Virus record (IMG/VR): IMGVR_UViG_3300042326_000500
Span: 1-29,828 of that record
DNA length: 29,828 nucleotides
From: a virus
Lineage: Duplodnaviria; Caudoviricetes
Reading direction: 5' to 3' (one strand)
A program made the position numbers and the translations under genes. Positions 6,644 through 28,957 of the stretch are shown here, one piece after another (within the stretch, counting starts at the first letter, position 1; the number at the start of each line of letters is the position of its first letter). Below the pieces are notes generated by a model that had not been told where the DNA came from, ran no database searches, and saw only the letters and a list, made by a program, of their open reading frames with translations.

Positions 6644-7987
6644 ATGAATTTGCAGGAATACCAACCGCGCCAGGTGTTCCTGCCGCTGCACAACCGCGAC
6701 CGGCGCTGGACGGTGGTGGTGGCGCACCGCCGCTGCGGCAAGACGGTGGCCATGTGCGCTGACCTGGTGCTCGGCGCGCTCGAGACAGCGCTTCCGAAAC
6801 CGCAATTCGCCTACCTGGCGCCGCAGCGCGACCAGGCCAAGCGGGTGGCGTGGGGTTACCTCAAGGATCTGACCCGGCCGTTCTGGACCAGGCCGCCCAA
6901 CGAATCTGAGTTGAAGATTTCGATCAACAACGGCCACAAGGGTGAGTCGACGATCTACGTCGCCGGCGCTGACAACTACGACGCCCTGCGCGGCATGTAT
7001 TTCGACGGGGCGGTGCTGGACGAGGTGGGCGACATGAGGCCCAGCGCCTGGTACACGGTGATCCGACCGGCCCTGTCAGACCGCCGCGGCTGGGCGATTT
7101 TCGCCGGCACGCCCCGCGGCAAGAACCTGTTCTGGAATTTGCGCGAGGAGGCGCGGCTGAATCCGGCCACGCACATGCTGCTGGAGCTGCCCGCGTCCAA
7201 GACCAACATCATCCACCCCGACGAACTGCGCGACGCCAAGGCGCAGATGACGGCCGAGGCGTTTGAGGTCGAGTACGAGTGCTCGTTTGATGCTGCGGTG
7301 CCGGGTGCGTACTACGCCAAGCAGATCGGCGACGCCTACGAGCAAGGCCGGATCGGCAAGTTTCCGGTGGACCCGGCGTTCCCGGTCAACCTGGTGGCCG
7401 ACCTGGGCTACACCGACAGCTGCAGCTGGTGGGGATGGCAGGAGACGCGCGACGGTTACCGCATCGTCGATTTCTACGAAGCGGACAACCAGCCAATTCA
7501 GCACTACATCGACTGGGTAAAGTCACGCCCGTACCGGGTCAACGCGGAGGGCATCTTTTTGCCTCACGATGCCCGCGCCAAGTCGTTGCAGACGGGCAAA
7601 TCCATCATCGAGCAGTTCCTGGCCAACGGCATCCGGCCGCGTTTGGTGCCTGAGATGTCGCTGCAGGACGGCATCGAGGCCGCGCGGCTGGTGCTGCCCA
7701 AGTGCTGGTTCGACGAGGAGGTCACCTACGACGGTGTTGACCACCTCCGCGCCTACATGCGGGAGTGGGACGAGAAGACCCAGACCTACCGCAACCGGCC
7801 CAAGCACGACCAGCACTCGCACGCGAGTGACAGCTTCCGGTATCTCGCGCTTGCTGCGCGCCCGGTGATGGCGAAATCGCACCCCGGTCCTAAAATCTCG
7901 ACACCTGTGGTCAAGAGCATGAACTATGCGTTCGCCCTTGACGACATCTGGGACTGCGGTCCCCAACAGAGCACAAGGATCGGGTGA
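6644..7987 (+). CDS. terL: terminase large subunit
   Basis: Walker A VAHRRCGKT, Walker B GAVLDE, coupling motif GTPRGKN, nuclease residues in ADLGYTD and HASDSFRY. Confidence 0.95.
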   Translation: MNLQEYQPRQVFLPLHNRDRRWTVVVAHRRCGKTVAMCADLVLGALETALPKPQFAYLAPQRDQAKRVAWGYLKDLTRPFWTRPPNESELKISINNGHKGESTIYVAGADNYDALRGMYFDGAVLDEVGDMRPSAWYTVIRPALSDRRGWAIFAGTPRGKNLFWNLREEARLNPATHMLLELPASKTNIIHPDELRDAKAQMTAEAFEVEYECSFDAAVPGAYYAKQIGDAYEQGRIGKFPVDPAFPVNLVADLGYTDSCSWWGWQETRDGYRIVDFYEADNQPIQHYIDWVKSRPYRVNAEGIFLPHDARAKSLQTGKSIIEQFLANGIRPRLVPEMSLQDGIEAARLVLPKCWFDEEVTYDGVDHLRAYMREWDEKTQTYRNRPKHDQHSHASDSFRYLALAARPVMAKSHPGPKISTPVVKSMNYAFALDDIWDCGPQQSTRIG

Positions 7988-9918
7988 TGGAAACCAACGC
8001 CAAGATCACCAGCGCAAGCGATTTCCAAAGCACCCCCGCGGGTCTGGCGCAGCGTTGGTCGACTGAGATTCAGGCGTCGCAGCAGGAGCTGATGAAGTTC
8101 CACACGGACGCCAACCGCATCACGCAGCGCTACCTGGACCGGCGCGACGCGTATGCGAAGGACGAGAGCAAGGTCAACCTGTTCTGGTCGACGATGAAGG
8201 TCCTGCTGTCGATGCTGTACGCGCGGCCACCCAAGGCCGACGTCAGCAGGACGTTCCAAGACTTCGAGGACGACCAGGCCCGCGTGGCTGGGTTGATGTT
8301 GCAGCGGATTTTGAACCGCGGCTTCGACGAGAACGTCTCTGTCTGGGACGCGGCCGTGCGGCAGGGCATCGAGGACTGGCTGATCGTGGGCATGGGCCAG
8401 ATCTGGCTGCGCTACGAGGTCAAGACTGAGCCCTACACCGTGCCGGCCGTGTTTGACGAGTTCGGCGTGGAGCTGCAGCCAGAAACCGAGGCCGAGCGCA
8501 TCGTCGACGAGGACGCCCCGGTGGACTACATCTACTGGGAGGACTTCTTCTACTCGCCGGCGCGGACCTGGCCCGAGGTGCGGTGGGTCGCCCGCCGCGT
8601 CTGGATGACCAAGGACCAGCTGGTCGATCGATTCGGCGAGGAGATCGCCAAGATCGTCCCGCTGGGGGTGCAGGTCAAAAAGGCCGACGTCAACGACCAG
8701 TCGCCCAAGCACGACCCGTGGTCGAAGGCTGAGGTGTTCGAGATCTGGTGCAAGGAAAACAAGAAGGTCTACTGGTACGCCAAGGGCGCCGACGTCATCC
8801 TGGACGTGAAGGACGACCCTCTGCAGCTCGACGGGTTCTTCCCGTGCCCGAAACCCCTGGCGGCCAACGTCACGAGCTCCAACTTCATGCCCCGCGCGGA
8901 CTACATCTTCGCGCAGGACCAGTTCAACGAGCTCGACGAGATCAACACCCGCATCACCTGGCTGACGCGTGCGGCCAAGGTCGTCGGCGTGTACGACAAG
9001 ACGGCCGACGGCGTGCAGCGCATGTTCCAGCAGGGCGCCGAAAACCAGATGATCCCGGTGGACAACTGGGCCCTGTTTGCGGAGAAGGGCGGCATCAAGG
9101 GCCAGGTCGACTGGGCCCCGATCGACATGGTGACCAACTGCATCGAGCGCCTGCGCCAGTACCGGCAGGACAAGGTGATGCAGATTTACGAGGTGCTGGG
9201 CATCTCCGACGTGATGCGCGGCAGCTCGCGCGCCAGCGAGACGGCCACCGCGCAGCAGATCAAGGCGCAGTTCGGATCGACCCGGATCCAGCTGATGCAG
9301 TTTTACATCGCCGACTGGATCTCGCAGGCGCTGCGGATCAAGGCCGAGATCATCTGCAAGCACTGGCAGCCTGAGACGATCATCAAGCGGTCGAACATCG
9401 AGCGCACGCCTGACGCGGCCATGGCCATCCAAGCGATCGCCCTGCTCAAGGACGAGCACATGGCGCAGTACCGGGTGAACGTCGAGGCCGACAGCATGGC
9501 CGCGCTGGACTGGGCCGCCGAGCGCGACGCCGCGGTGCAGTTCATGCAGGGCCTGGGGGCGTTCATCTCCCAGGTGGCGCCGATGGCGCAATCGGTGCCC
9601 CAGGCGGCGCCTGTGCTGCTGTCGCTGCTGCAGTGGAGCGTGTCCAAGTTCCGCGTCAGCCAGCAGATCGAGGGCGTGCTCGACCAGGCGATCGGCGCCC
9701 TCAAGCAGCAGGGCATGCCCCAGCAGCAAGGGCCCAGCCCGCTGCAGCAGGCTGAGGTGGCCGAGAAGATGGCCGGCGCCAAGGAGCGCCAGGCCAAGGC
9801 CGTCAACACCGAGATGGACGCGCGCATGAAGGCGATGCAGATGGGGATGCTGCAGCCGCAGCCCCAGCTCCCGCCGGCCGCTCCTCAGATGCCGCCGGTG
9901 GGCGGCTCGATGCAGTGA
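7987..9918 (+). CDS. portal protein
   Basis: about 640 aa directly after terL; ASETATAQQIK motif and Q/P-rich C-terminal tail typical of podovirus portals; GTG 7984 is an alternative start. Confidence 0.85.
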   Translation: METNAKITSASDFQSTPAGLAQRWSTEIQASQQELMKFHTDANRITQRYLDRRDAYAKDESKVNLFWSTMKVLLSMLYARPPKADVSRTFQDFEDDQARVAGLMLQRILNRGFDENVSVWDAAVRQGIEDWLIVGMGQIWLRYEVKTEPYTVPAVFDEFGVELQPETEAERIVDEDAPVDYIYWEDFFYSPARTWPEVRWVARRVWMTKDQLVDRFGEEIAKIVPLGVQVKKADVNDQSPKHDPWSKAEVFEIWCKENKKVYWYAKGADVILDVKDDPLQLDGFFPCPKPLAANVTSSNFMPRADYIFAQDQFNELDEINTRITWLTRAAKVVGVYDKTADGVQRMFQQGAENQMIPVDNWALFAEKGGIKGQVDWAPIDMVTNCIERLRQYRQDKVMQIYEVLGISDVMRGSSRASETATAQQIKAQFGSTRIQLMQFYIADWISQALRIKAEIICKHWQPETIIKRSNIERTPDAAMAIQAIALLKDEHMAQYRVNVEADSMAALDWAAERDAAVQFMQGLGAFISQVAPMAQSVPQAAPVLLSLLQWSVSKFRVSQQIEGVLDQAIGALKQQGMPQQQGPSPLQQAEVAEKMAGAKERQAKAVNTEMDARMKAMQMGMLQPQPQLPPAAPQMPPVGGSMQ

Positions 9919-9926
9919 GGTGACGC

Positions 9927-10295
9927 ATGGAAAAAGCAAACGAGTTCGTCACCAAGCTGCTGGCCGATCGGTCGGCGGCGCACGTGGCCCACTGGCGCAC
10001 CGAAGAATTTTCGGCGCACGTCGCGCTGGGTGAGTTCTACGACAAGCTGACCGACCTGGTCGACGGGTTCGTCGAGCAGTACCAGGGCTACTACGGCAAG
10101 CGCATGGAGCCCAAGGTCGTGGGCCTTGCGGTGAGCGCTGACGGCATCGACGACCTGCTCGAGCTGTCGTGCGAGTGGATTGAGGCCAACCGCTACAAGG
10201 TCTGCGACCGCGACGACACGTCGCTGCAGAACACGATCGACGAGGTCGTCAAGCTCTACCAGACGACCCTCTACAAGCTGCGCATGCTCAAGTGA
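9927..10295 (+). CDS. Dps/ferritin-like four-helix protein (DUF5856-type)
   Basis: HVAHW...H.ALGEFY...D..VE.YQG and terminal TLYKL resemble the Dps ferroxidase signature; GAGG RBS. Confidence 0.75.
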   Translation: MEKANEFVTKLLADRSAAHVAHWRTEEFSAHVALGEFYDKLTDLVDGFVEQYQGYYGKRMEPKVVGLAVSADGIDDLLELSCEWIEANRYKVCDRDDTSLQNTIDEVVKLYQTTLYKLRMLK

Positions 10296-10302
10296 GGACG
10301 CG

Positions 10303-11691
10303 ATGCAACCACAGGACCTGATCAACGCCCTGCGCGACCGCGCGCGCAAGTTCGTCTCCCTGGACAACCCCGAGGACGGCGACCTGGGCGACCTGGCTAT
10401 CGACATCGGCGCCGGCTTCCTGCCGGTGGTTGGCACGGCCACCAGCGGCCGCGATTTCGAGCGCGCGCGCCGCGAGGGCGACAAGCTGGGGATGGTCCTG
10501 TCGGCGGCCGGCATGGTTCCGGTGGTCGGTGGTGTTGCCGGTGCGGCCAACAAGGCGCGCAAGGGTGGCAAGGCTACCGAGGAGACGGTCAAGGCGCTGC
10601 GCAAGGTCGACGACGTCGGCTATGACCGCGCCAAGATCGCGGCCAACTATCCTGACACCGCGCCCCCTGTGCTGGCCAAGGACCCCAAGACTGGCAAGGA
10701 GTTTCTGCAGAAGCAAAACTCTGCCGAGGCGCTGGCTGTCGAGAAGGTGCGCAAGGCCGCGCAGAAGGACATCGACAAGGGCAACTACGACCCGTATTTC
10801 AAGGTCGAGGACCGTTTCTACGCCGACGCCAACAAGTATCCGCTGCAGGGCCGCACCGTCACCGACGCGCTGCCCAAGAAGCAGGCCACGATCGACAAGT
10901 ACACCGCAGAGTTCGACACGCCGGAGGCGCGCGAGCGCCTGACGACAGCCTTCCGCGAGGGTAGCAAGGACCCCAACGCGAAGGACTGGTACGCGATGGG
11001 CCAGCTCGAGGCCGAGTTCATCAAGGAGTTCGGCGACAAGAAGGGCCGCGAGATGTTCAAGGAGCGGTTCGCTGATGCGATGTCCGCGACCACTGGCGGC
11101 GCTGACCCGACCGCCAACCTGCTGATGTCAGCCTACGGCAACTTCCTGCGTCAGAAGGGTGTGCCGCAGCCGAGCGCTGCGTATGAGTTCCCGTACCCGA
11201 TCGGTGGCCGCTTCGCGTCTGGAAACATGGCCATGTACGACAAGGTCATCAACCAGGGCGCTGGCCTGCAGGCCGCCAAGACGCCCAAGCGCTTCGATTT
11301 CTCGGCCAACTTCATGGGGCACCGCGATCGCGCCACGATCGACGAGCAGATGAGCGGCGGTTTCCGCCCTGGTCTGCTGGTGCCGCCGGGTGATTCCTAC
11401 GGCGTGTTTGAGAAGGTGGTGCACGACCTGGCCAAGGCCGAGGGTGTGCAGCCGGCCAACTTCCAAGACGTGGCCTGGAAGGGCCTGAAGGGAGTGCCCG
11501 GCAAGCCGATGATTCAGCACGTCAACGAGGCGGTCGAGCGCACCGCGCGTGTGACCGGCAAAAAGCCGCAGGACGTGGTCCGCGACAGCCTGGTGCGTGG
11601 CACGCATCCGCTGTACAGCCTGGGCGCTGCCGGCATCGGCACCGCCGCTCTGGCAGCCGCGCTGCGCAATCAGGAGGAGGACGAGTTTTGA
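10303..11691 (+). CDS. putative virion-associated effector/toxin: pre-toxin-TG-like segment plus HhH-GPD DNA-glycosylase-like domain
   Basis: DIGAGFLPVVGTATSGRDF...GMVLSAAGMVPVVG, then DWY, PK..F..N..G....TID..M and Y...A...G..P...Q..AW; start moved to ATG 10303 (GAGG RBS). Confidence 0.6.
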   Translation: MQPQDLINALRDRARKFVSLDNPEDGDLGDLAIDIGAGFLPVVGTATSGRDFERARREGDKLGMVLSAAGMVPVVGGVAGAANKARKGGKATEETVKALRKVDDVGYDRAKIAANYPDTAPPVLAKDPKTGKEFLQKQNSAEALAVEKVRKAAQKDIDKGNYDPYFKVEDRFYADANKYPLQGRTVTDALPKKQATIDKYTAEFDTPEARERLTTAFREGSKDPNAKDWYAMGQLEAEFIKEFGDKKGREMFKERFADAMSATTGGADPTANLLMSAYGNFLRQKGVPQPSAAYEFPYPIGGRFASGNMAMYDKVINQGAGLQAAKTPKRFDFSANFMGHRDRATIDEQMSGGFRPGLLVPPGDSYGVFEKVVHDLAKAEGVQPANFQDVAWKGLKGVPGKPMIQHVNEAVERTARVTGKKPQDVVRDSLVRGTHPLYSLGAAGIGTAALAAALRNQEEDEF

Positions 11692-11873
11692 TCGTCCAGG
11701 TCAATCTTGAGCTGTTTCGCGGCATCGAGCAGCTCGGTGCCGAGCTTGCGTTCTAGGTGCGGGTACATGTCACCCGTGTCAACCATCAGCGACGCAGCCT
11801 CGAGCAGGGCAGCCCAGGTTTCCCTTGGCGCCCGCACGACGCGCGTGCCTACGACGATGATGACGTCATCCAT
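11670..11873 (-). CDS. 67-aa antisense protein; candidate immunity/antitoxin or moron
   Basis: AGGAG RBS 6 nt before ATG 11873; its 3' end overlaps that of the 10303 gene; the only credible minus-strand gene in the late region. Confidence 0.6.
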   Translation of the reverse strand: MDDVIIVVGTRVVRAPRETWAALLEAASLMVDTGDMYPHLERKLGTELLDAAKQLKIDLDDQNSSSS

Positions 11874-11900
11874 GGCCATCTCCTTTTCTGCATATCGTTG

Positions 11901-11909
11901 AGAATACCA
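11901..11909 (-). promoter_or_regulatory. extended -10 promoter (TGgTATTCT) for the antisense gene
   Basis: the minus strand reads tgTGGTATTCTcaac about 16 nt upstream of the RBS, in an AT-rich gap. Confidence 0.5.
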
Positions 11910-11913
11910 CAAC

Positions 11914-12240
11914 ATGACTAGACGCCGCTGGATTCAGGACCGCATCACGGGCGAATTGATCGAGGTCACGCCCGACTATCAGCCCGAGCTGCGCACCGAC
12001 TCTGGCGCGCTGTGGGGCGATCGCAGCTACGACGGGCTGCGCGCCACTGACGGCACCGATATCAGCTCGCGGACTAAGCACCGCGACTACATGAAGGCCA
12101 ACGGCCTGGCCACGGCCGACGACTTCAAGGAAACCTGGGCCAAGTCCCAGCAACAGCGTGACCACTACCGACAGCACGGTGGCACGTTCTCACGACGCGA
12201 CGTAGAGCGCGCGATTCAGCAACTCCAAAACAGGCGATAA
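11914..12240 (+). CDS. conserved hypothetical head-module protein
   Basis: DGTDISSRTKHRDYMKANGL pattern; lies just before the scaffold gene. Confidence 0.75.
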   Translation: MTRRRWIQDRITGELIEVTPDYQPELRTDSGALWGDRSYDGLRATDGTDISSRTKHRDYMKANGLATADDFKETWAKSQQQRDHYRQHGGTFSRRDVERAIQQLQNRR

Positions 12241-19075: not shown

Positions 19076-19512
19076 AGCTGGTGACCGACCAACCTGGCGA
19101 GTATCCGGTCGTCTGGGAGTGGATGAACCGGCGCACGCGGCTGCCATGGAGCAGCGACCTGCGCACGATCGCGTCCATGCGAGATGACGGGACGATCGCC
19201 AGCGCGGTCGGTTTCAACGCCTGGACGCTGTCGGCCTGCTGGATTCACGTGGCGTTTGACGGTCCGCATGGGCTGAACAGGCACCTGTGGCGCGCAGCCT
19301 TCGAGTATCCATTCGTAAAATGCGGCATGGAGGCCATCTACGGCTTGACGCCCAAGAACCTCGACGACGCGCTGCGGATGAATGACAAGTTGGGATTCCG
19401 CAGGATCGCTGAGACGGTTGACTGCGTAATGTTTGAAATGCGACACGACGAGTGCCGCTGGATCAAGGAGAACGCTCATGGGCGGCAAGGGATCAGCACC
19501 TCCACCACCTGA
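19072..19512 (+). CDS. GNAT-fold acetyltransferase-like virion-assembly protein
   Basis: AFEYPF...GLTPKNLDDALRMNDKLGF resembles GNAT motif B; lies before the ejection proteins. Confidence 0.7.
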   Translation: MKLVTDQPGEYPVVWEWMNRRTRLPWSSDLRTIASMRDDGTIASAVGFNAWTLSACWIHVAFDGPHGLNRHLWRAAFEYPFVKCGMEAIYGLTPKNLDDALRMNDKLGFRRIAETVDCVMFEMRHDECRWIKENAHGRQGISTSTT

Positions 19513-21283
19513 TTACATCGGTGCGGCTAACACGCAAGCGGCAGCTTCTAAAGAGCTGACCAACATCCAGAACTTTGCCAACCGGCCGACGATCAACACG
19601 CCGTTCGGTTCGCAGTCCTGGCAGACCAGCGCGCAGGTGGATCCGGCGACGGGTCAGACCGTCACGTCGTGGACGCAGAACAACACCTTGGCGCCGGCGC
19701 TGCAGTCTGCGTTGAATGCGCAGATCGGGCTGCAGAACGACCGCTCGCAGCTGGCCGGTAACTTCATGGACCGTGTGGCCAGCGAGTATCAGCGCCCGTT
19801 CGACTACGCCAACCTGCCGCAGATGGCCGAGGCCAACCCGGTGGGCAACCTGCAAACGAACGTGGGCGACTATGCCCGCGGCCTGCAGACGGGGGTCGAC
19901 TCGCGCGCCAACAACGTGGTGAGCGGCTTCAACTTTGCCGGCCCGCAGATGGGCATGTCGCCGATGACCGGCGGCTTGAACTACGGCGTCAGCCAACAAC
20001 CGCTGAACACTGGGTTCAGCGGTATGACGGGTGACCTGACTCGAGGCACCGGCACCGAGTCGCTGCAGCGCTCGCTAGCCACCGGCGACAACCCGGACCT
20101 GCCGCAAATTGACAGCGGCTATCGTGATCGGGTTGCGGATCAGCTCATGCAACGCATGCAGCCGGTGCACAACTATCAGCAGCAGCAGCTTGAGGCGCGC
20201 CTGGCCAATCAGGGCTTTACGGTTGGCAGCGAGGCCTACAACCGTGCGCTGACCGAGTTGCAGCAGCGGCAGGCCAACGAGCGTTTCAACGCGCTCGACC
20301 AGGCTGGAAACGAGGCTCAGCGCTTGTTTGGCATGCAAATGGGCGCTCGGCAGCAGGCGTTTAATGAGGACGTCAGCGGCGGCAACTTCTTCAACCAGGC
20401 CGCGAACCAGGCGTTCAACCAGGGGTTATCTGCAAACCAGTTCGCCAACCAGGCCACGGGGCAGGCGTTCAACCAGGCGATGCAGGCCCAGCAGGCCGGC
20501 AACCAGGCGCTGGGTCAGCAGTTCCAGCAGAACGTCACCAACGCCAACCTGAACAACCAAGCGATCAATCAGGCCTACGGCCAGACGCTGGGCGCGTTCA
20601 ACTTCGGCAACCAGGCGCAGAACCAGGCCTACAACCAGATGATGGGCCAGGCCAACCTCGCCAACCAGGCGGCCGGTCAGGCGTTCAACCAGGACCTGCA
20701 GGCGCGTCAGTTCGGCAACCAGGCCCTGGGCCAGGCGTCCGCGCTCGACGTCGCCCGCATGCAGGCGCAGAACCAGGCTGCCGCGCAGCAGTTTGGCCTC
20801 AACCAGCAGTTCGCCGACTCGCGCAACCGTCTGCGCCAGCAGGCGATCGCCGAGCAGATGCAGCGTCGCGGCATGTCTCTCAACGAGATGAACGCGCTGC
20901 TGTCGGGTCAGCAGGTCAACATGCCCAACATGCCGTCGTTCGCGGCCGCACAGCGTTCAGAGACGCCCAACATCCTGGGCGCCACGCAGATGGGGTACGA
21001 CGCCGCGCTGGGCTCTTACAACGCGCAGCAGGCTGGCTTTGGCAACCTGCTGGGCGCCGGCGCACAGCTCGGCTCGGCCGCGTTCATGTTCTCTGACCGT
21101 CGCCTGAAGTCCAACCTTAAGCGGGTGGGCACGCATGCGACTGGCGTGGGCATTTACGACTACACGATGATGGGAATGCCGCAACGCGGTGTGATTGCGC
21201 AAGAGGTGGAGCGCGTGCGGCCTGACCTGGTCAAGCGCCACGCGAACGGCTACCTGATGGTGAACTACGGAGGCCTGCAATGA
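19478..21283 (+). CDS. Q/N-rich internal virion (ejection) protein with a C-terminal peptidase S74 chaperone domain
   Basis: start MGGKGSAPPPPDY (AAGGAG RBS); NQA(F/Y)NQ repeats; FSDRRLKSN...GVIAQEV...GYLMVNY. Confidence 0.75.
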   Translation: MGGKGSAPPPPDYIGAANTQAAASKELTNIQNFANRPTINTPFGSQSWQTSAQVDPATGQTVTSWTQNNTLAPALQSALNAQIGLQNDRSQLAGNFMDRVASEYQRPFDYANLPQMAEANPVGNLQTNVGDYARGLQTGVDSRANNVVSGFNFAGPQMGMSPMTGGLNYGVSQQPLNTGFSGMTGDLTRGTGTESLQRSLATGDNPDLPQIDSGYRDRVADQLMQRMQPVHNYQQQQLEARLANQGFTVGSEAYNRALTELQQRQANERFNALDQAGNEAQRLFGMQMGARQQAFNEDVSGGNFFNQAANQAFNQGLSANQFANQATGQAFNQAMQAQQAGNQALGQQFQQNVTNANLNNQAINQAYGQTLGAFNFGNQAQNQAYNQMMGQANLANQAAGQAFNQDLQARQFGNQALGQASALDVARMQAQNQAAAQQFGLNQQFADSRNRLRQQAIAEQMQRRGMSLNEMNALLSGQQVNMPNMPSFAAAQRSETPNILGATQMGYDAALGSYNAQQAGFGNLLGAGAQLGSAAFMFSDRRLKSNLKRVGTHATGVGIYDYTMMGMPQRGVIAQEVERVRPDLVKRHANGYLMVNYGGLQ

Positions 21284-24569: not shown

Positions 24570-27500
24570 ATGCCCCGCAACCTTTCCGGTGTTTACACCC
24601 TTCCCGCTGGTAACCCTGTGGTGCCTGGCACCACAATCGACGCGGCCTGGGCCAACTCGACGCTGGAGGACATCTCCAACGAGTTGACCAACTCGCTGTC
24701 GCGCACGGGCGCTGGCGGCATGCTGGCGCCGTTCCGCATTGCTGACGGCAACGTCACCGGGCCGGGCCTGTCGTTCCTGAACGAAACCAACACCGGCTAC
24801 TACCGCGTCGGGGCGGGATCGACCGCGTTCTCAATCCTGGGCGTCAATACGCTGCAGATGAACACCACGTCGGTGACTGTCCCTGCAGCGCGCACCCTAA
24901 ATGCGCAGGGCAACGCGCTGGTGGCCGGTACGCTTGGCGTCACGGGCGCCACGCTTATGGCCTCGACGCTTGGCGTGACTGGTGTGATTACGGCACTGGG
25001 TGGAGTTCTTGGCAACATCACGGCAGCCAGCGGCACCTCGACGTTCAACGACCTAGTGATCAACGGCTCGCTGGACATGGTGGCCGGCAGCTCGGCGACC
25101 ATCACCGGGCTGTCGACCCCGACCAACGCTAGCGACGCGGCCAACAAGGGCTACGTCGACACGCAGGACGCGCTGAAGCTCAACCTCGCCGGTGGCACCA
25201 TGAGCGGCAACCTCGCCATGGGCAACAACCTGGTGACGGGGCTCGGCACGCCGGCATCTGGCGGCGACGCGACCAACAAGACCTACGTCGATGGCCAGAT
25301 CGCCACGCGTCTAGCGCTGGCCGGCGGGACGATGTCGGGTGCCATTGCGATGGGCACCAACAAGATCACGGGCCTTGGCACCCCCACCGCCGACGCTGAC
25401 GCGGCCACCAAGGCCTACGTCGACAGCGTGGCGCAGGGCCTGGACGTGAAGGGCAGCGTGCGCGCTGCGACCACCGGCAACATCACGCTGTCGGGCACGC
25501 AGACGATCGACGGCGTGGCCGTGATCGCCGGCGACCGGGTGCTGGTCAAGGACCAGTCGACGGCCGCCAACAACGGCATCTACGTGGCCGCTGCTGGTTC
25601 CTGGTCGCGTGCGGCTGACGCCGACACCTGGGCTGAGCTGGTCGGCGCGTTCGTGTTCGTCGAGGACGGCACCGTCAACGACAACAGCGGCTGGGTCTGC
25701 ACGGTGGCGCCTGGTGGCACGCTGGGCGTGACCGCGGTGACGTTTGAGCAGTTCTCTGGCGCGGGGCAGATCACTGCCGGCGCCGGTATGGTCAAGGTCG
25801 GCAACACGCTCAATGTGCAGTCGGCGTCGAGCTCTCGCATCGTGGTGGGTGCCGACGAGATCGACCTGGCGACCACGGGCGTGAGTGCCGGCACCTATCG
25901 GTCGGTCGGTGTCGACATCTATGGCCGCGTGACAACGGGCACCAACCCGACGACGCTGGCCGGCTACGGCATCACCGACGCCTACACCTCAACGGCCACC
26001 GACACGCTGCTTAACGGCAAGCTGTCGCTGACCGGCGGCACGATGTCGGGCCCGATCGCCATGGGCACGAGCAAGATCACTGGCCTGGGTGATCCGACCA
26101 ACGCCCAGGATGCTGCCACCAAGAACTATACCGACACCGGCCTGAACGCCAAGCTGTCGCTGTCGGGTGGCACGATGACCGGCGCCCTGGCCATGGGCAC
26201 CAACCGCATCACCGGCATGGGTGACCCGGTCAATGCGCAGGACGGGGCGACCAAGAACTACATCGACACGATCTTCGGCTCGACGGCGTCGGCTGCAGCG
26301 TCTGCCGCAGCTGCTGCGTCTAGTGCTTCGTCGGCGAGCTCTAGTGCGTCGAGTGCGTCGACCAGCGCGTCCAATGCGTCGACGTCGGCTAGCACTGCCT
26401 CGACGGCCCTGTTCAACTTCCGCGCTCAGTACCTGGGCCCGCTCGCGTCTGACCCGACGGTCGACGGCAACGGCAACCCGGTGAGCACGGGCGACCTGTA
26501 CTTCAACACGACGGCCAGCGAGACGCGCGTCTACAACGGCAGCGCCTGGGTCGCGGCCTATGTGCCGACTGCTGGCTACGCGCTGCTGGCCTCGGCCAAC
26601 GTGTTCACCGCGAACCAGACCATCACGGCCAACACCTCAAACGACGCGCTGAAAATCACGCAGACGGGCTCGGGCAACGCGCTGTACATCGAGGATGTGG
26701 CGGCTGACGCCACGCCGTTTGTGGTGTCGTCCACCGGCGTGCTGGGCATCGGCACCACGACGCCTGACAACGTGACGTCGGCTGGTATCGCGCTAGTGTC
26801 CAACAGCGGGTTCTATCCGCAGCTCATCCAGCGCAACACCGCCAACGACGCCAACGCGTCGTACTTAGGCCTTGAGAAGATTCGCGGCAGTTCGGCCGTC
26901 CAGAGCAACGACATCCTGGGCAACATCGTGTTCCGCGGCTACGACGGCACGCAGTTCCTGCAGGGCGCGGCGATCTGGGCCAGGATCAGCGCCACGCCAG
27001 GCGCCAATGACATGCCGACCGATCTGCTGTTTGGCACGACGCCTGATGGCGGCGCGGGCATCAGCGAGCGCATGAACTTGGACAAAAACGGCAACCTCGG
27101 TCTGGGGGTGACGCCAAGTGCTTGGCAATCTGGTTTGCGTGCTTTTCAAGTTGGCGCAACAGCATCAATTTACTCAAACGGCTCAAACACCACTTTTCAC
27201 GGCCTAAACTTCTTCACAGATTCTGGTGGGACAAACAGATATTTAATTTCAAACTTTGCATCTGCCTACGGTCAGGTTTCTGGCGCTCATAACTGGTTTA
27301 CCGCCCCCTCCGGCACCGCAGGAAACGCCATCAGTTTCACGCAGGCGATGACACTGGAGGCTTCTGGTCGATTGCTTGTTGGTGTTACTTCTGGAAGTTA
27401 CGCACTTGATGTCGGTGATGTTTCCGGCGGAAATATGTTCCGCTTCGCTCGTTCAGGGGTTGAACTAAGTTCTTACATCAGTAGCGGTACTCCGTTCTTT

Positions 27501-28649
27501 GGAACGACCTCAAATACAGAACTTGCGCTGATGACCAACAGCACAAGGCGTGCAACCATAGACACCTCCGGCAACCTCGGTCTGGGGGTGACGCCGAGTG
27601 CTTGGGGAAGCAGTTACAGGGCTTTGCAAGTTGGCTCAGCATCTTCGCTGTATGGGATCGGCGCCAACACGATTGTTGGAAACAACGCCTACAACGACGG
27701 GACAAATTCTCGTTACATCACAAGTTCTCAAGCCACTTTGTACGCCCAAAACTCATCAGGGCAACACATTTGGTACACCGCAGCCTCCGGCACCGCAGGA
27801 AACGCCATCAGTTTCACGCAGGCGATGACGCTGGATGCGAGTGGGAATTTGGGCGTCAATGCCACATCAATTGCCGGTCTTGGCACCAACATCACGACCA
27901 TTGAAATAAAAGGAAAGGCCACTGATCGCACTGGTGGAGTGCGCTTGCGCAGTTCTGATAACTCGGTTGACTTCAGCTATTACTCAGCATCAGGCGTGGG
28001 GTCGCTTGGTTCAGATTCAAATCACCCGCTTGCGTTTGTTACTTACGCCACCGAACGCGCACGGATTACGTCGGGTGGTCTGCTTCTCATCGGCAAAACC
28101 TCCGATGTAAACGGCAGGCTTCAGGTGCGCGGTTCTTATTCGTCCGGTATCCTTGTTGATGGGGGCACCGATGATGGCAACTGGGGTGGCGGCGTTGGCT
28201 TTTACTCCGCCACAAGCAACGGCCAATACGGACGTGTCCATGCGAGCACGGGCGGGCTGTTTGCTACAGGTGGCACGACAGGGGGAGTCGTTCTTTCGCC
28301 CGGCGCTACGTCGTGGGCTTCAGCGTCCGACGTCCGCCTAAAGAACATTATTGAGCCAATCGCAAGCCCTTTAGACAAGGTGATGCGACTTGAGTCGTTC
28401 ATCTTTTCGTGGAAGTCTGACGCCTCGAATAAGCGTTGTGTGGGCTTGTCGGCCCAGTCTGTTGACGAAGTTTTGCCTGAGGCTGTCGTCAAAACACGCA
28501 ATCAAGAGAACCGCGAAGATGAAACCGAATATCTCGGAGTCAAGTACACCGAGTTGGTGCCTTTGCTGACCGCAGCAATCCAAGAACTTAAGGCACAGAA
28601 CGACGACCTCCGCGCCCGTGTGGCGCAACTTGAAGCCAAAGGAGCATGA
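24570..28649 (+). CDS. tail fibre/spike with a C-terminal peptidase S74 intramolecular chaperone
   Basis: start moved to MPRNLSGVYTLPAGNPVV (GAGGAG RBS); GGTMSG...DAAxKxYVD repeats; Ser/Ala-rich stretch; SDVRLKNI...GLSAQ...YTELVPLL..AIQEL. Confidence 0.9.
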   Translation: MPRNLSGVYTLPAGNPVVPGTTIDAAWANSTLEDISNELTNSLSRTGAGGMLAPFRIADGNVTGPGLSFLNETNTGYYRVGAGSTAFSILGVNTLQMNTTSVTVPAARTLNAQGNALVAGTLGVTGATLMASTLGVTGVITALGGVLGNITAASGTSTFNDLVINGSLDMVAGSSATITGLSTPTNASDAANKGYVDTQDALKLNLAGGTMSGNLAMGNNLVTGLGTPASGGDATNKTYVDGQIATRLALAGGTMSGAIAMGTNKITGLGTPTADADAATKAYVDSVAQGLDVKGSVRAATTGNITLSGTQTIDGVAVIAGDRVLVKDQSTAANNGIYVAAAGSWSRAADADTWAELVGAFVFVEDGTVNDNSGWVCTVAPGGTLGVTAVTFEQFSGAGQITAGAGMVKVGNTLNVQSASSSRIVVGADEIDLATTGVSAGTYRSVGVDIYGRVTTGTNPTTLAGYGITDAYTSTATDTLLNGKLSLTGGTMSGPIAMGTSKITGLGDPTNAQDAATKNYTDTGLNAKLSLSGGTMTGALAMGTNRITGMGDPVNAQDGATKNYIDTIFGSTASAAASAAAAASSASSASSSASSASTSASNASTSASTASTALFNFRAQYLGPLASDPTVDGNGNPVSTGDLYFNTTASETRVYNGSAWVAAYVPTAGYALLASANVFTANQTITANTSNDALKITQTGSGNALYIEDVAADATPFVVSSTGVLGIGTTTPDNVTSAGIALVSNSGFYPQLIQRNTANDANASYLGLEKIRGSSAVQSNDILGNIVFRGYDGTQFLQGAAIWARISATPGANDMPTDLLFGTTPDGGAGISERMNLDKNGNLGLGVTPSAWQSGLRAFQVGATASIYSNGSNTTFHGLNFFTDSGGTNRYLISNFASAYGQVSGAHNWFTAPSGTAGNAISFTQAMTLEASGRLLVGVTSGSYALDVGDVSGGNMFRFARSGVELSSYISSGTPFFGTTSNTELALMTNSTRRATIDTSGNLGLGVTPSAWGSSYRALQVGSASSLYGIGANTIVGNNAYNDGTNSRYITSSQATLYAQNSSGQHIWYTAASGTAGNAISFTQAMTLDASGNLGVNATSIAGLGTNITTIEIKGKATDRTGGVRLRSSDNSVDFSYYSASGVGSLGSDSNHPLAFVTYATERARITSGGLLLIGKTSDVNGRLQVRGSYSSGILVDGGTDDGNWGGGVGFYSATSNGQYGRVHASTGGLFATGGTTGGVVLSPGATSWASASDVRLKNIIEPIASPLDKVMRLESFIFSWKSDASNKRCVGLSAQSVDEVLPEAVVKTRNQENREDETEYLGVKYTELVPLLTAAIQELKAQNDDLRARVAQLEAKGA
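25098..26270 (+). repeat. 44-aa fibre shaft repeats (LAGGTMSG.IAMGT.KITGLG.PT...DAATK.YVD)
   Basis: GGTM units at 25191, 25323, 26034 and 26166 (132-nt spacing within each pair), plus a partial copy near 25100. Confidence 0.85.
27089..27829 (+). repeat. two pairs of near-identical direct repeats bounding diverged fibre modules
   Basis: 27089-27125 vs 27569-27605 (36/37 nt identical); 27307-27352 vs 27784-27829 (46/46). Confidence 0.9.
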
Positions 28650-28957
28650 GCATGGACATCATCATCAACACCCTGGAGCGCAACACCGCCGACGGCGCCG
28701 TGATCACGGTGCACTGGTCGACCGCCAAGACGCAGGGCGAGCACACCGCCAGCCAGTACGGAACCGAGTCGTTCGAGGCTGATCCGGCAGCGCCTGGGTT
28801 CGTGCCTTACGAGCAGCTGACGAAGGAGATCGTCACCGGCTGGCTGACCGCGCGCTGGGGGGCTGAGGGCCTGGCCGCCAAGGAGGCTGCGCTGGACGCG
28901 CAGCTGGCTCAGATGGCCAACCCGCCGGTGGTGATCGGCCTGCCCTGGGCGGCATAA
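28646..28957 (+). CDS. small tail-fibre-associated protein
   Basis: ATGA overlap with the fibre gene; V.TVHW...FVPYEQLT...V.GW...LPW pattern common downstream of fibre genes. Confidence 0.7.
   Translation: MSMDIIINTLERNTADGAVITVHWSTAKTQGEHTASQYGTESFEADPAAPGFVPYEQLTKEIVTGWLTARWGAEGLAAKEAALDAQLAQMANPPVVIGLPWAA

Follow-up and report, generated by a model that had tools for sequence, protein, structure and literature searches.

A swappable candidate glycosylase effector and its convergent partner gene in the head operon of Mx8-like phages

Here we describe an accessory cassette (10299..11913) in the head module of a tailed phage that is likely to represent a polymorphic effector system, independent of MuF, in Mx8-like temperate podoviruses. 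The cassette consists of a 462-amino-acid (aa) effector gene (P0001; 10303..11691, plus strand), a convergent 67-aa partner gene (P0002; 11670..11873, minus strand) and the promoter element of the partner. In its best explanation, which we hold with belief and doubt about equally weighted, the effector would be a capsid-packaged glycosylase with a swappable core, and the 67-aa protein its cognate antidote. Among the points that favour this explanation, the cassette is lost whole, the partner is selected as a protein, partner and effector core are found together in 62 of 63 partner-seeded loci, and two other cores have unrelated convergent genes of their own.

An accessory slot in the head operon

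The window, that is, the whole stretch of 29,828 nucleotides analysed here, is a linear virus record with a completeness of 83%. The sequencing runs that contain the stretch are almost exclusively lake metagenomes; no RNA run holding it is among the listed runs, two RNA-labelled ones being judged probably DNA. Head and tail genes form one operon, in which the terminase gene (6644), the portal gene (7984..9918, plus strand; phrog_12082, E 2.6e-159) and a DUF5856 gene (9927..10295, plus strand; PF19174) precede the effector gene, and a conserved 108-aa gene (11914..12240, plus strand), a gene in the scaffold position (12244) and the major head protein gene (13568) follow it. The effector gene is thus downstream of portal, as a preliminary description of this DNA had it, but does not directly adjoin it, because the DUF5856 gene intervenes. 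That gene is separately accessory: it is missing from L003 and L005–L007, and contigs of runs X7 and X11 connect 9899 to 10291, leaving it out. Six further loci (L011, L092, L093, L096, L103 and L106) have blocks of extra genes of ~3.5–4.6 kb between portal and the effector slot, some of which look, by eye, like fibre or decoration proteins.

In its capsid protein the phage is 73% identical to Stenotrophomonas phage BUCT555 and 64% identical to Myxococcus phage Mx8, in both of which the interval from portal to the scaffold position contains no large gene. The effector gene is present in no cultured phage in INPHARED; one relative of the phage carries the source label Betaproteobacteria. All five complete close relatives (5/5) encode a tyrosine integrase, in keeping with the temperate setting proposed earlier. 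Elsewhere in the window, positions 26400–28800, within a 1,414-aa tail fibre gene, have a GC content of 0.53–0.58 against about 0.65 and lack a counterpart in G001, a complete relative, so that a receptor-binding part may have been swapped here. Positions 19433–21283 encode a virion protein whose C-terminal domain is a Peptidase_S74 chaperone and which matches a DNA ejection protein family. In G001, a metallophosphoesterase gene (L234:6511-7497) is flanked by lysis genes and the integrase.

We compared the slot across relatives using the 108-aa gene as the anchor, which left 80 of 107 loci. The slot is empty in L046, L047 and L049–L052, where the next gene is 91–94% identical, and a natural contig (run X7) joins 10298 to 11914, missing exactly 10299–11913, or 1,615 bases. 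Where the slot is otherwise occupied, the encoded proteins are alike only over residues 1 to about 100. A search with residues 5–95 of the effector returned 273 proteins, the best 120 of which split into ten core classes with 37, 25, 22, 14, 8, 8, 3, 1, 1 and 1 members, the effector's own core being the class of 22; three of these best 120 carry ART-PolyVal, one of them together with GNAT. Seen from the other end of the protein, only 1 of 148 core representatives bears the N-terminus of the effector. Two proteins, P0327 and P0329, have residues 1–88 that are 97.7–98.9% identical on an unrelated core. In P0327 the near-identity (98.9% over residues 1–88) stops at residue 88 and the sequence is unrelated beyond, so the core swaps are recent. 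The preliminary description had proposed checking whether relatives swap C-terminal domains and partner genes at this locus, and both swap: recombination directly after residue 88 exchanges core and partner between phages. One slot protein with a different N-terminus (L060:7027-8004) matches phrog_2579, labelled ParB C-terminal domain.

The common N-terminal module (residues 1–88; 10303..10566, plus strand) contains a Gly-rich hydrophobic helical hairpin and is a putative packaging or delivery signal. Both the doubled pattern GFLPVVG/GMVPVVG and the basic linker pointed out before are present in its translation. We take a doubled hydrophobic P-V-V-G ahead of a variable effector to resemble PT-TG (PF14449), and this likeness is one seen by eye: the N-terminus gives no match to the PT-TG HMM and contains no TG motifs, which corrects the earlier PT-TG-like assignment. 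A similar doubled hydrophobic N-terminal pattern occurs in L149:3948-4853, directly after a core gene, in front of a different C-terminal part with no Pfam match. The reported absence of a MuF domain agrees with our searches, which found no PF04233 match in the window and no MuF family in a Pfam scan of 76 members.

The arrangement nevertheless recalls MuF toxins, which include those of Jamet et al. 2017 (PMC5576092) and the Apk2 toxins (PMC12226406; see also PMC3482391). As far as the accessible text of PMC5576092 and PMC12226406 goes, both have in common a head-module gene just after portal, a constant N-terminus, a variable effector, a small neighbouring open reading frame (ORF) and integrase-bearing phages. 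Unlike MuF toxins, the effector has no match to PF04233, the MuF profile compared. Its small gene faces it and is preceded by a promoter element of its own, whereas MuF immunity ORFs are described in the accessible text as following the toxin gene; and several cores here are glycosylase-like, an effector type absent from the MuF descriptions in that text. With polymorphic toxin systems in general the effector shares a constant N-terminus and exchanged C-terminal domains, with the crossover after residue 88. A literature search, covering mostly open-access papers, found no description of the system; the supplements of PMC5512222 and PMC5576092 could list these proteins.

Fusions of the core to other domains suggest, by analogy, that the effector is packaged in the virion. 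The core occurs in proteins of up to 1,989 aa, and among 43 scanned of the 62 core proteins with 650 aa or more, ART-PolyVal was found in 14 (7 above the cut-off), LPD23 in three, and SLT, phage tail lysozyme and PBECR5 in one each. It is fused to SLT in L036, L161, L185 and P0129, with SLT N-terminal in the first three, and L185 has a match to an internal virion protein family. Among viral proteins, the best fold match of the effector is a 1,385-aa protein labelled SleB cell wall hydrolase. Such fusions are described, in the accessible text of PMC5512222 and PMC7824862, as features of injected polyvalent proteins. Long polyvalent-type proteins with ART-PolyVal, LPD23, PBECR5 and SLT share the effector's core, and ART-PolyVal occupies the effector's slot too, as it occurs in polyvalent proteins (PMC5512222, accessible text). 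Unlike these, the effector has a single core and comes with a cognate partner, and the word 'glycosylase' is absent from the main text of PMC5512222. In L186:2802-5086, two adjoining genes have like starts, one with a weak ART-PolyVal match and the other with the effector's core, which suggests tandem effectors.

The predicted glycosylase core

The effector has 621 homologues at E<=0.001 among 8,000 scored sequences. Pfam, PHROGs, NCBIfam and PADLOC give no match for either the effector or the 67-aa partner, and a PDB sequence search with the effector protein or its profile gave none. In a structural model built with AlphaFold2 on 72 sequences, pLDDT is mostly >90 at residues 110–440 and <50 at residues 15–49, 70–89 and 442–462. 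In a structural search with this model (VIA, 48,161 chains), every one of the 21 best rows belongs to the HhH-GPD superfamily. The best match is Thermotoga maritima OGG2 (3n0u; Z 9.9, rmsd 3.6, 178 aligned, residues 207–403), followed by the queuine salvage protein DUF2419 (Z 6.6) and hOGG1 (Z about 6.2–6.6); a second comparison gave Methanocaldococcus jannaschii OGG2 (3knt) at Z 9.2, rmsd 3.6 and 174 aligned. As a Z of 9.9 is a modest value for a helical domain and Foldseek against the PDB returned nothing at E<=0.001, the evidential weight lies in the consistency of the match list. Residues 207–403 (10921..11511, plus strand) are accordingly predicted by the model to adopt an HhH-GPD glycosylase fold. 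This agrees with the earlier proposal of that fold and departs from its endonuclease III-like assignment, since OGG2-type 8-oxoguanine glycosylases are the closest; the suggestion of base editing found no support.

Two regions flank this domain. Ahead of it, a conserved subdomain (residues 104–204; 10612..10914, plus strand; pLDDT >90) is retained together with the core in most of the 148 representatives, and the structural matches barely cover it. Behind it, the C-terminal tail (11623..11688, plus strand), Gly/Ala-rich and hydrophobic and then acidic, is of low pLDDT and occurs on several unrelated cores too.

Residue conservation, scored on 149 sequences, namely the effector itself and 148 representatives at 50% identity, singles out the motifs noticed earlier, whose codons begin at 10987 (W229), 11284 (P328-K329), 11335 (T345-I-D347) and 11464 (Q388). 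K329 (11287..11289, plus strand) and D347 (11341..11343, plus strand), 18 residues further on, are invariant (149/149 each), as is W392 (149/149), and Q388 is conserved in 148/149. From their order and spacing, K329 and D347 are the putative equivalents of the HhH-GPD catalytic Lys and Asp, which strengthens the identification proposed in the preliminary description; in hOGG1 the catalytic residues K249 and D268 are 19 apart (PMC3397491, accessible text). The same text gives the base-binding pairs as Q315/F319 in hOGG1, D194/W198 in OGG2 and D218/W222 in AGOG. Q388-x3-W392 (11464..11478, plus strand) has the spacing of these pairs, with Q388 as the candidate reader of the guanine edge and W392 as the candidate base-stacking Trp, and we therefore infer that the substrate would be a guanine-type base.

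The resemblance to the OGG2/AGOG/OGG1 branch, which extends to the fold, the Lys/Asp spacing and the Q/D-x3-W/F motif (PMC3397491, accessible text), has limits. Identity is about 10–13%, and the effector has extra subdomains and lies among virion genes. A canonical hairpin and Gly/Pro-rich GPD motif are not recognizable in its sequence; the hairpin of AGOG is likewise described as non-canonical (PMC3397491, accessible text). The 8-oxoG sensor of OGG2 is its C-terminal lysine, according to the same source. The OGG2 C-terminus aligns near residue 403, and the effector ends about 60 residues further on, at F462; lacking a counterpart of this sensor, it is not an OGG2 member.

A further comparison concerns DUF7178 (PF23802), for which we found no literature. 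By Atlas feature match (0.93), the effector is close to clusters rich in DUF7178, yet the protein itself does not match the PF23802 HMM; 7 of 76 effector relatives match at E<=0.1 (best E 1.7e-05). On these profile matches, DUF7178 is probably a distant relative of the effector core.

Three other core classes in the slot have, by eye, a similar order of W-Y, Lys, Asp and Q-x3-W motifs. Profile–profile comparison of the effector core with the other slot cores is weak (best probability 13–16%), so that the glycosylase nature of those cores is read from motif order by eye. L058-type cores gave only E>1 matches in a PDB sequence search, and the L080-type core no usable Atlas match.

A cognate and separately promoted partner gene

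The partner gene overlaps the 3′ end of the effector gene by 22 nucleotides (nt) on the opposite strand. It is preceded by an AGGAG ribosome-binding site (11880..11884, minus strand) 6 nt before its ATG, for which most relatives have purine-rich equivalents, and by an extended −10 element, TGGTATTCT, that begins at 11909 (11901..11909, minus strand). The coordinates previously given are all correct. The minus strand of the 29.8-kb window contains the pattern TG.TA...T at only two places, one of them at 11909. A standard sigma-70 scan called no promoter for the partner, because the scan demands a −35 match. Of 26 distinct loci that have a reverse gene, 25 show the pattern [T/C]G.TA...T at the equivalent place, against 0 of 40 loci that lack such a gene; the loci are related, and in about five of the 40 the anchor start was misplaced. 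In several loci the element is a perfect TGnTATAAT. A terminator-like site at 11586–11565 (minus strand) is within chance, with 3 such sites found and 1.7 ± 1.1 expected.

Codon statistics indicate that the partner is under purifying selection as a protein. Among 16 sequences, pN<pS in 120 of 120 pairs, which are not independent, and variability at codon positions 1, 2 and 3 is 64, 39 and 129. A purely antisense role, antisense control being one of two functions first offered for the reverse gene, is therefore unlikely. Searches seeded with the partner gave 63 loci (21 metagenome and 42 viral, in part the same contig), in 62 of which the effector's core lies convergent to it; the exception is truncated, with 151 bases of flank. 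Together with the selection and the promoter counts, this pairing upholds the earlier view of a real, cognate and separately promoted partner. The model of the partner is a β-hairpin and three helices (pLDDT 85.9). A fold search found no clear structural relative and only weak winged-helix and sigma-region matches (best Z 5.4). Of 25 partner sequences, 22 are net acidic. Binding to an EndoIII-like domain has been described for small phage proteins, namely anti-END (PMC12191111, accessible text). In L035 (6001–6964), the effector is internally deleted with an early stop and the partner and promoter element are intact; as the deletion is seen on one contig only, it may be an assembly error.

Two other core types have convergent genes of their own. 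L074- and L080-type cores each have an unrelated small convergent gene behind the same promoter element (L074:6236-6403, a family of 56–68 aa; L080:7795-7980, 62 aa), each bound to one core class. A cognate small gene is thus present for three core classes and absent for the L053/L054/L058/L070, L056 and L060 types. For the effector's own core, 60 of 63 distinct loci could be scored, three being without downstream DNA: the partner family is found in 36 (34 clear, 2 divergent), another small convergent ORF in 4 and none in about 20, among which are all 7 large fusion proteins. Two distant core relatives, neither of whose records has an integrase match, have other small acidic convergent ORFs with a 41-nt 3′ overlap (L164:4989-5141 and L186:5049-5219). 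Neither partner nor promoter was found for the glycosylase-like cores of L053 and L194–L196, which are in integrase-bearing phages, or for those of L054, L056, L058 and L070; phages with L056- and L058-type cores likewise have integrases. The fold therefore need not be host-toxic.

Among records at least 90% complete, a tyrosine integrase accompanies core plus partner in 9 of 11, a partnerless core in 0 of 4 and a core with another small ORF in 0 of 2; in G019 and G022, both complete and with core and partner, neither integrase type was found. This pattern tracks lineage, which confounds any link of the partner to lysogeny, and Mx8-like records with an empty or partnerless slot have an integrase as well. 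Identity in the partner rises with identity in the core (Spearman 0.67, 276 pairs), as linkage alone would also yield. By sequence comparison the two trees agree only in part; in L012, an exception, the core is 96% identical and the partner 63%.

Proposed mechanism and rival explanations

In the scheme that we favour with equal parts of confidence and reserve, the effector would be made late, together with the head genes, in line with its position in the operon. The shared N-terminal module would load the swappable domain into the virion, and the effector would be injected with the DNA, as the core fusions to muralytic and polyvalent virion proteins suggest. In the newly infected cell, K329, D347, Q388 and W392 of the predicted fold would excise a guanine-type base and nick the DNA. 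The partner, expressed from its own host-type promoter outside the late operon, would neutralize the effector and so protect producer cells, lysogens and cells in which the genome establishes itself; damage would fall on cells that destroy the genome, as well as on those without the cognate partner. Recombination after residue 88, which is observed, trades core and partner between phages.

A further-reaching version is possible, but we advance it tentatively and think it doubtful. The slot proteins would form a family of virion-injected glycosylase toxins that share one delivery module, with a self-promoted antidote for each host-toxic type, and would serve in phage kin recognition and in punishing defence. 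If this were true, a cell would survive only if it held, or admitted and expressed, the matching phage genome.

Several rival explanations address the same data. The effector, injected or made late, may be a weapon of phage against phage that excises a modified guanine of competitors, of the 7-deazaguanine type, with the partner merely curbing off-target activity in some hosts. A precedent is the bacterial protein Dag1, an HhH glycosylase with K118, D132, D184 and W188 that cleaves guanine-modified phage DNA only (10.1101/2025.10.29.685425, accessible text). By the description of Dag1 there, its D184-x3-W188 corresponds to Q388-x3-W392, so that Dag1/Dag2 and the effector are alike in the use of an HhH glycosylase fold with Lys, Asp and D/Q-x3-W in conflict; Dag1/Dag2 are stand-alone bacterial defence genes, whereas the effector is phage-encoded, modular and partnered. 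Such a weapon would account for the partnerless relatives, and is consistent with the second place of the queuine salvage protein DUF2419 (Z 6.6) in the structural match list and with a scan of the proteins of G001 and the window in which no DNA modification gene was recognized. Against it, three hosts expressed Dag1 on its own (same source, accessible text). An enzyme blind to normal DNA would need no cognate partner, and the 62/63 retention of the partner therefore speaks against a Dag1-like weapon, which we regard as unlikely.

We consider it quite improbable that the effector instead repairs the phage's own incoming genome or counters host defence, removing 8-oxoguanine or a host-added guanine adduct until the partner stops the enzyme after entry. 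The closest folds are indeed those of 8-oxoguanine repair enzymes, polyvalent proteins have been proposed as protectors of the incoming genome (PMC5512222, accessible text), and partnerless forms would fit. Yet the effector lacks the C-terminal Lys sensor of OGG2 and runs about 60 residues beyond the aligned end, and a repair role leaves unexplained the rapid exchange among unrelated cores that each bring a partner of their own.

Co-orientation of the effector gene with the late genes and the separate promoter element of the partner would also suit an effector that is not packaged and acts in the producing cell, in late host-DNA damage or lysogen addiction, with the partner as antitoxin. This reading fails to explain either the conserved, low-confidence N-terminal module common to ten core classes or the core fusions to muralytic virion proteins, and seems very unlikely. 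Scarcely credible, finally, is a reverse unit that acts by antisense or transcriptional interference, or whose small product is a DNA-binding regulator rather than an inhibitor, since for all its convergent layout with a 22-nt overlap and its weak winged-helix and sigma-region matches, the partner is selected at the protein level, is net acidic in most sequences and comes from a different protein family with every core.

What polymorphic toxins do physiologically for the phages that carry them is an open question according to PMC12226406 (accessible text), and the slot described here offers natural near-identical phages in which it is empty or filled with one of ten cores, with the antidote present or absent. 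A packaged effector with a cognate antidote would provide a second delivery module alongside MuF, would show that base-excision enzymes are used offensively by phages, beyond their part in bacterial defence, and would assign a function to DUF7178-like domains. The family may also give new glycosylases whose base specificity is unusual, as well as small proteins that inhibit the HhH-GPD fold.
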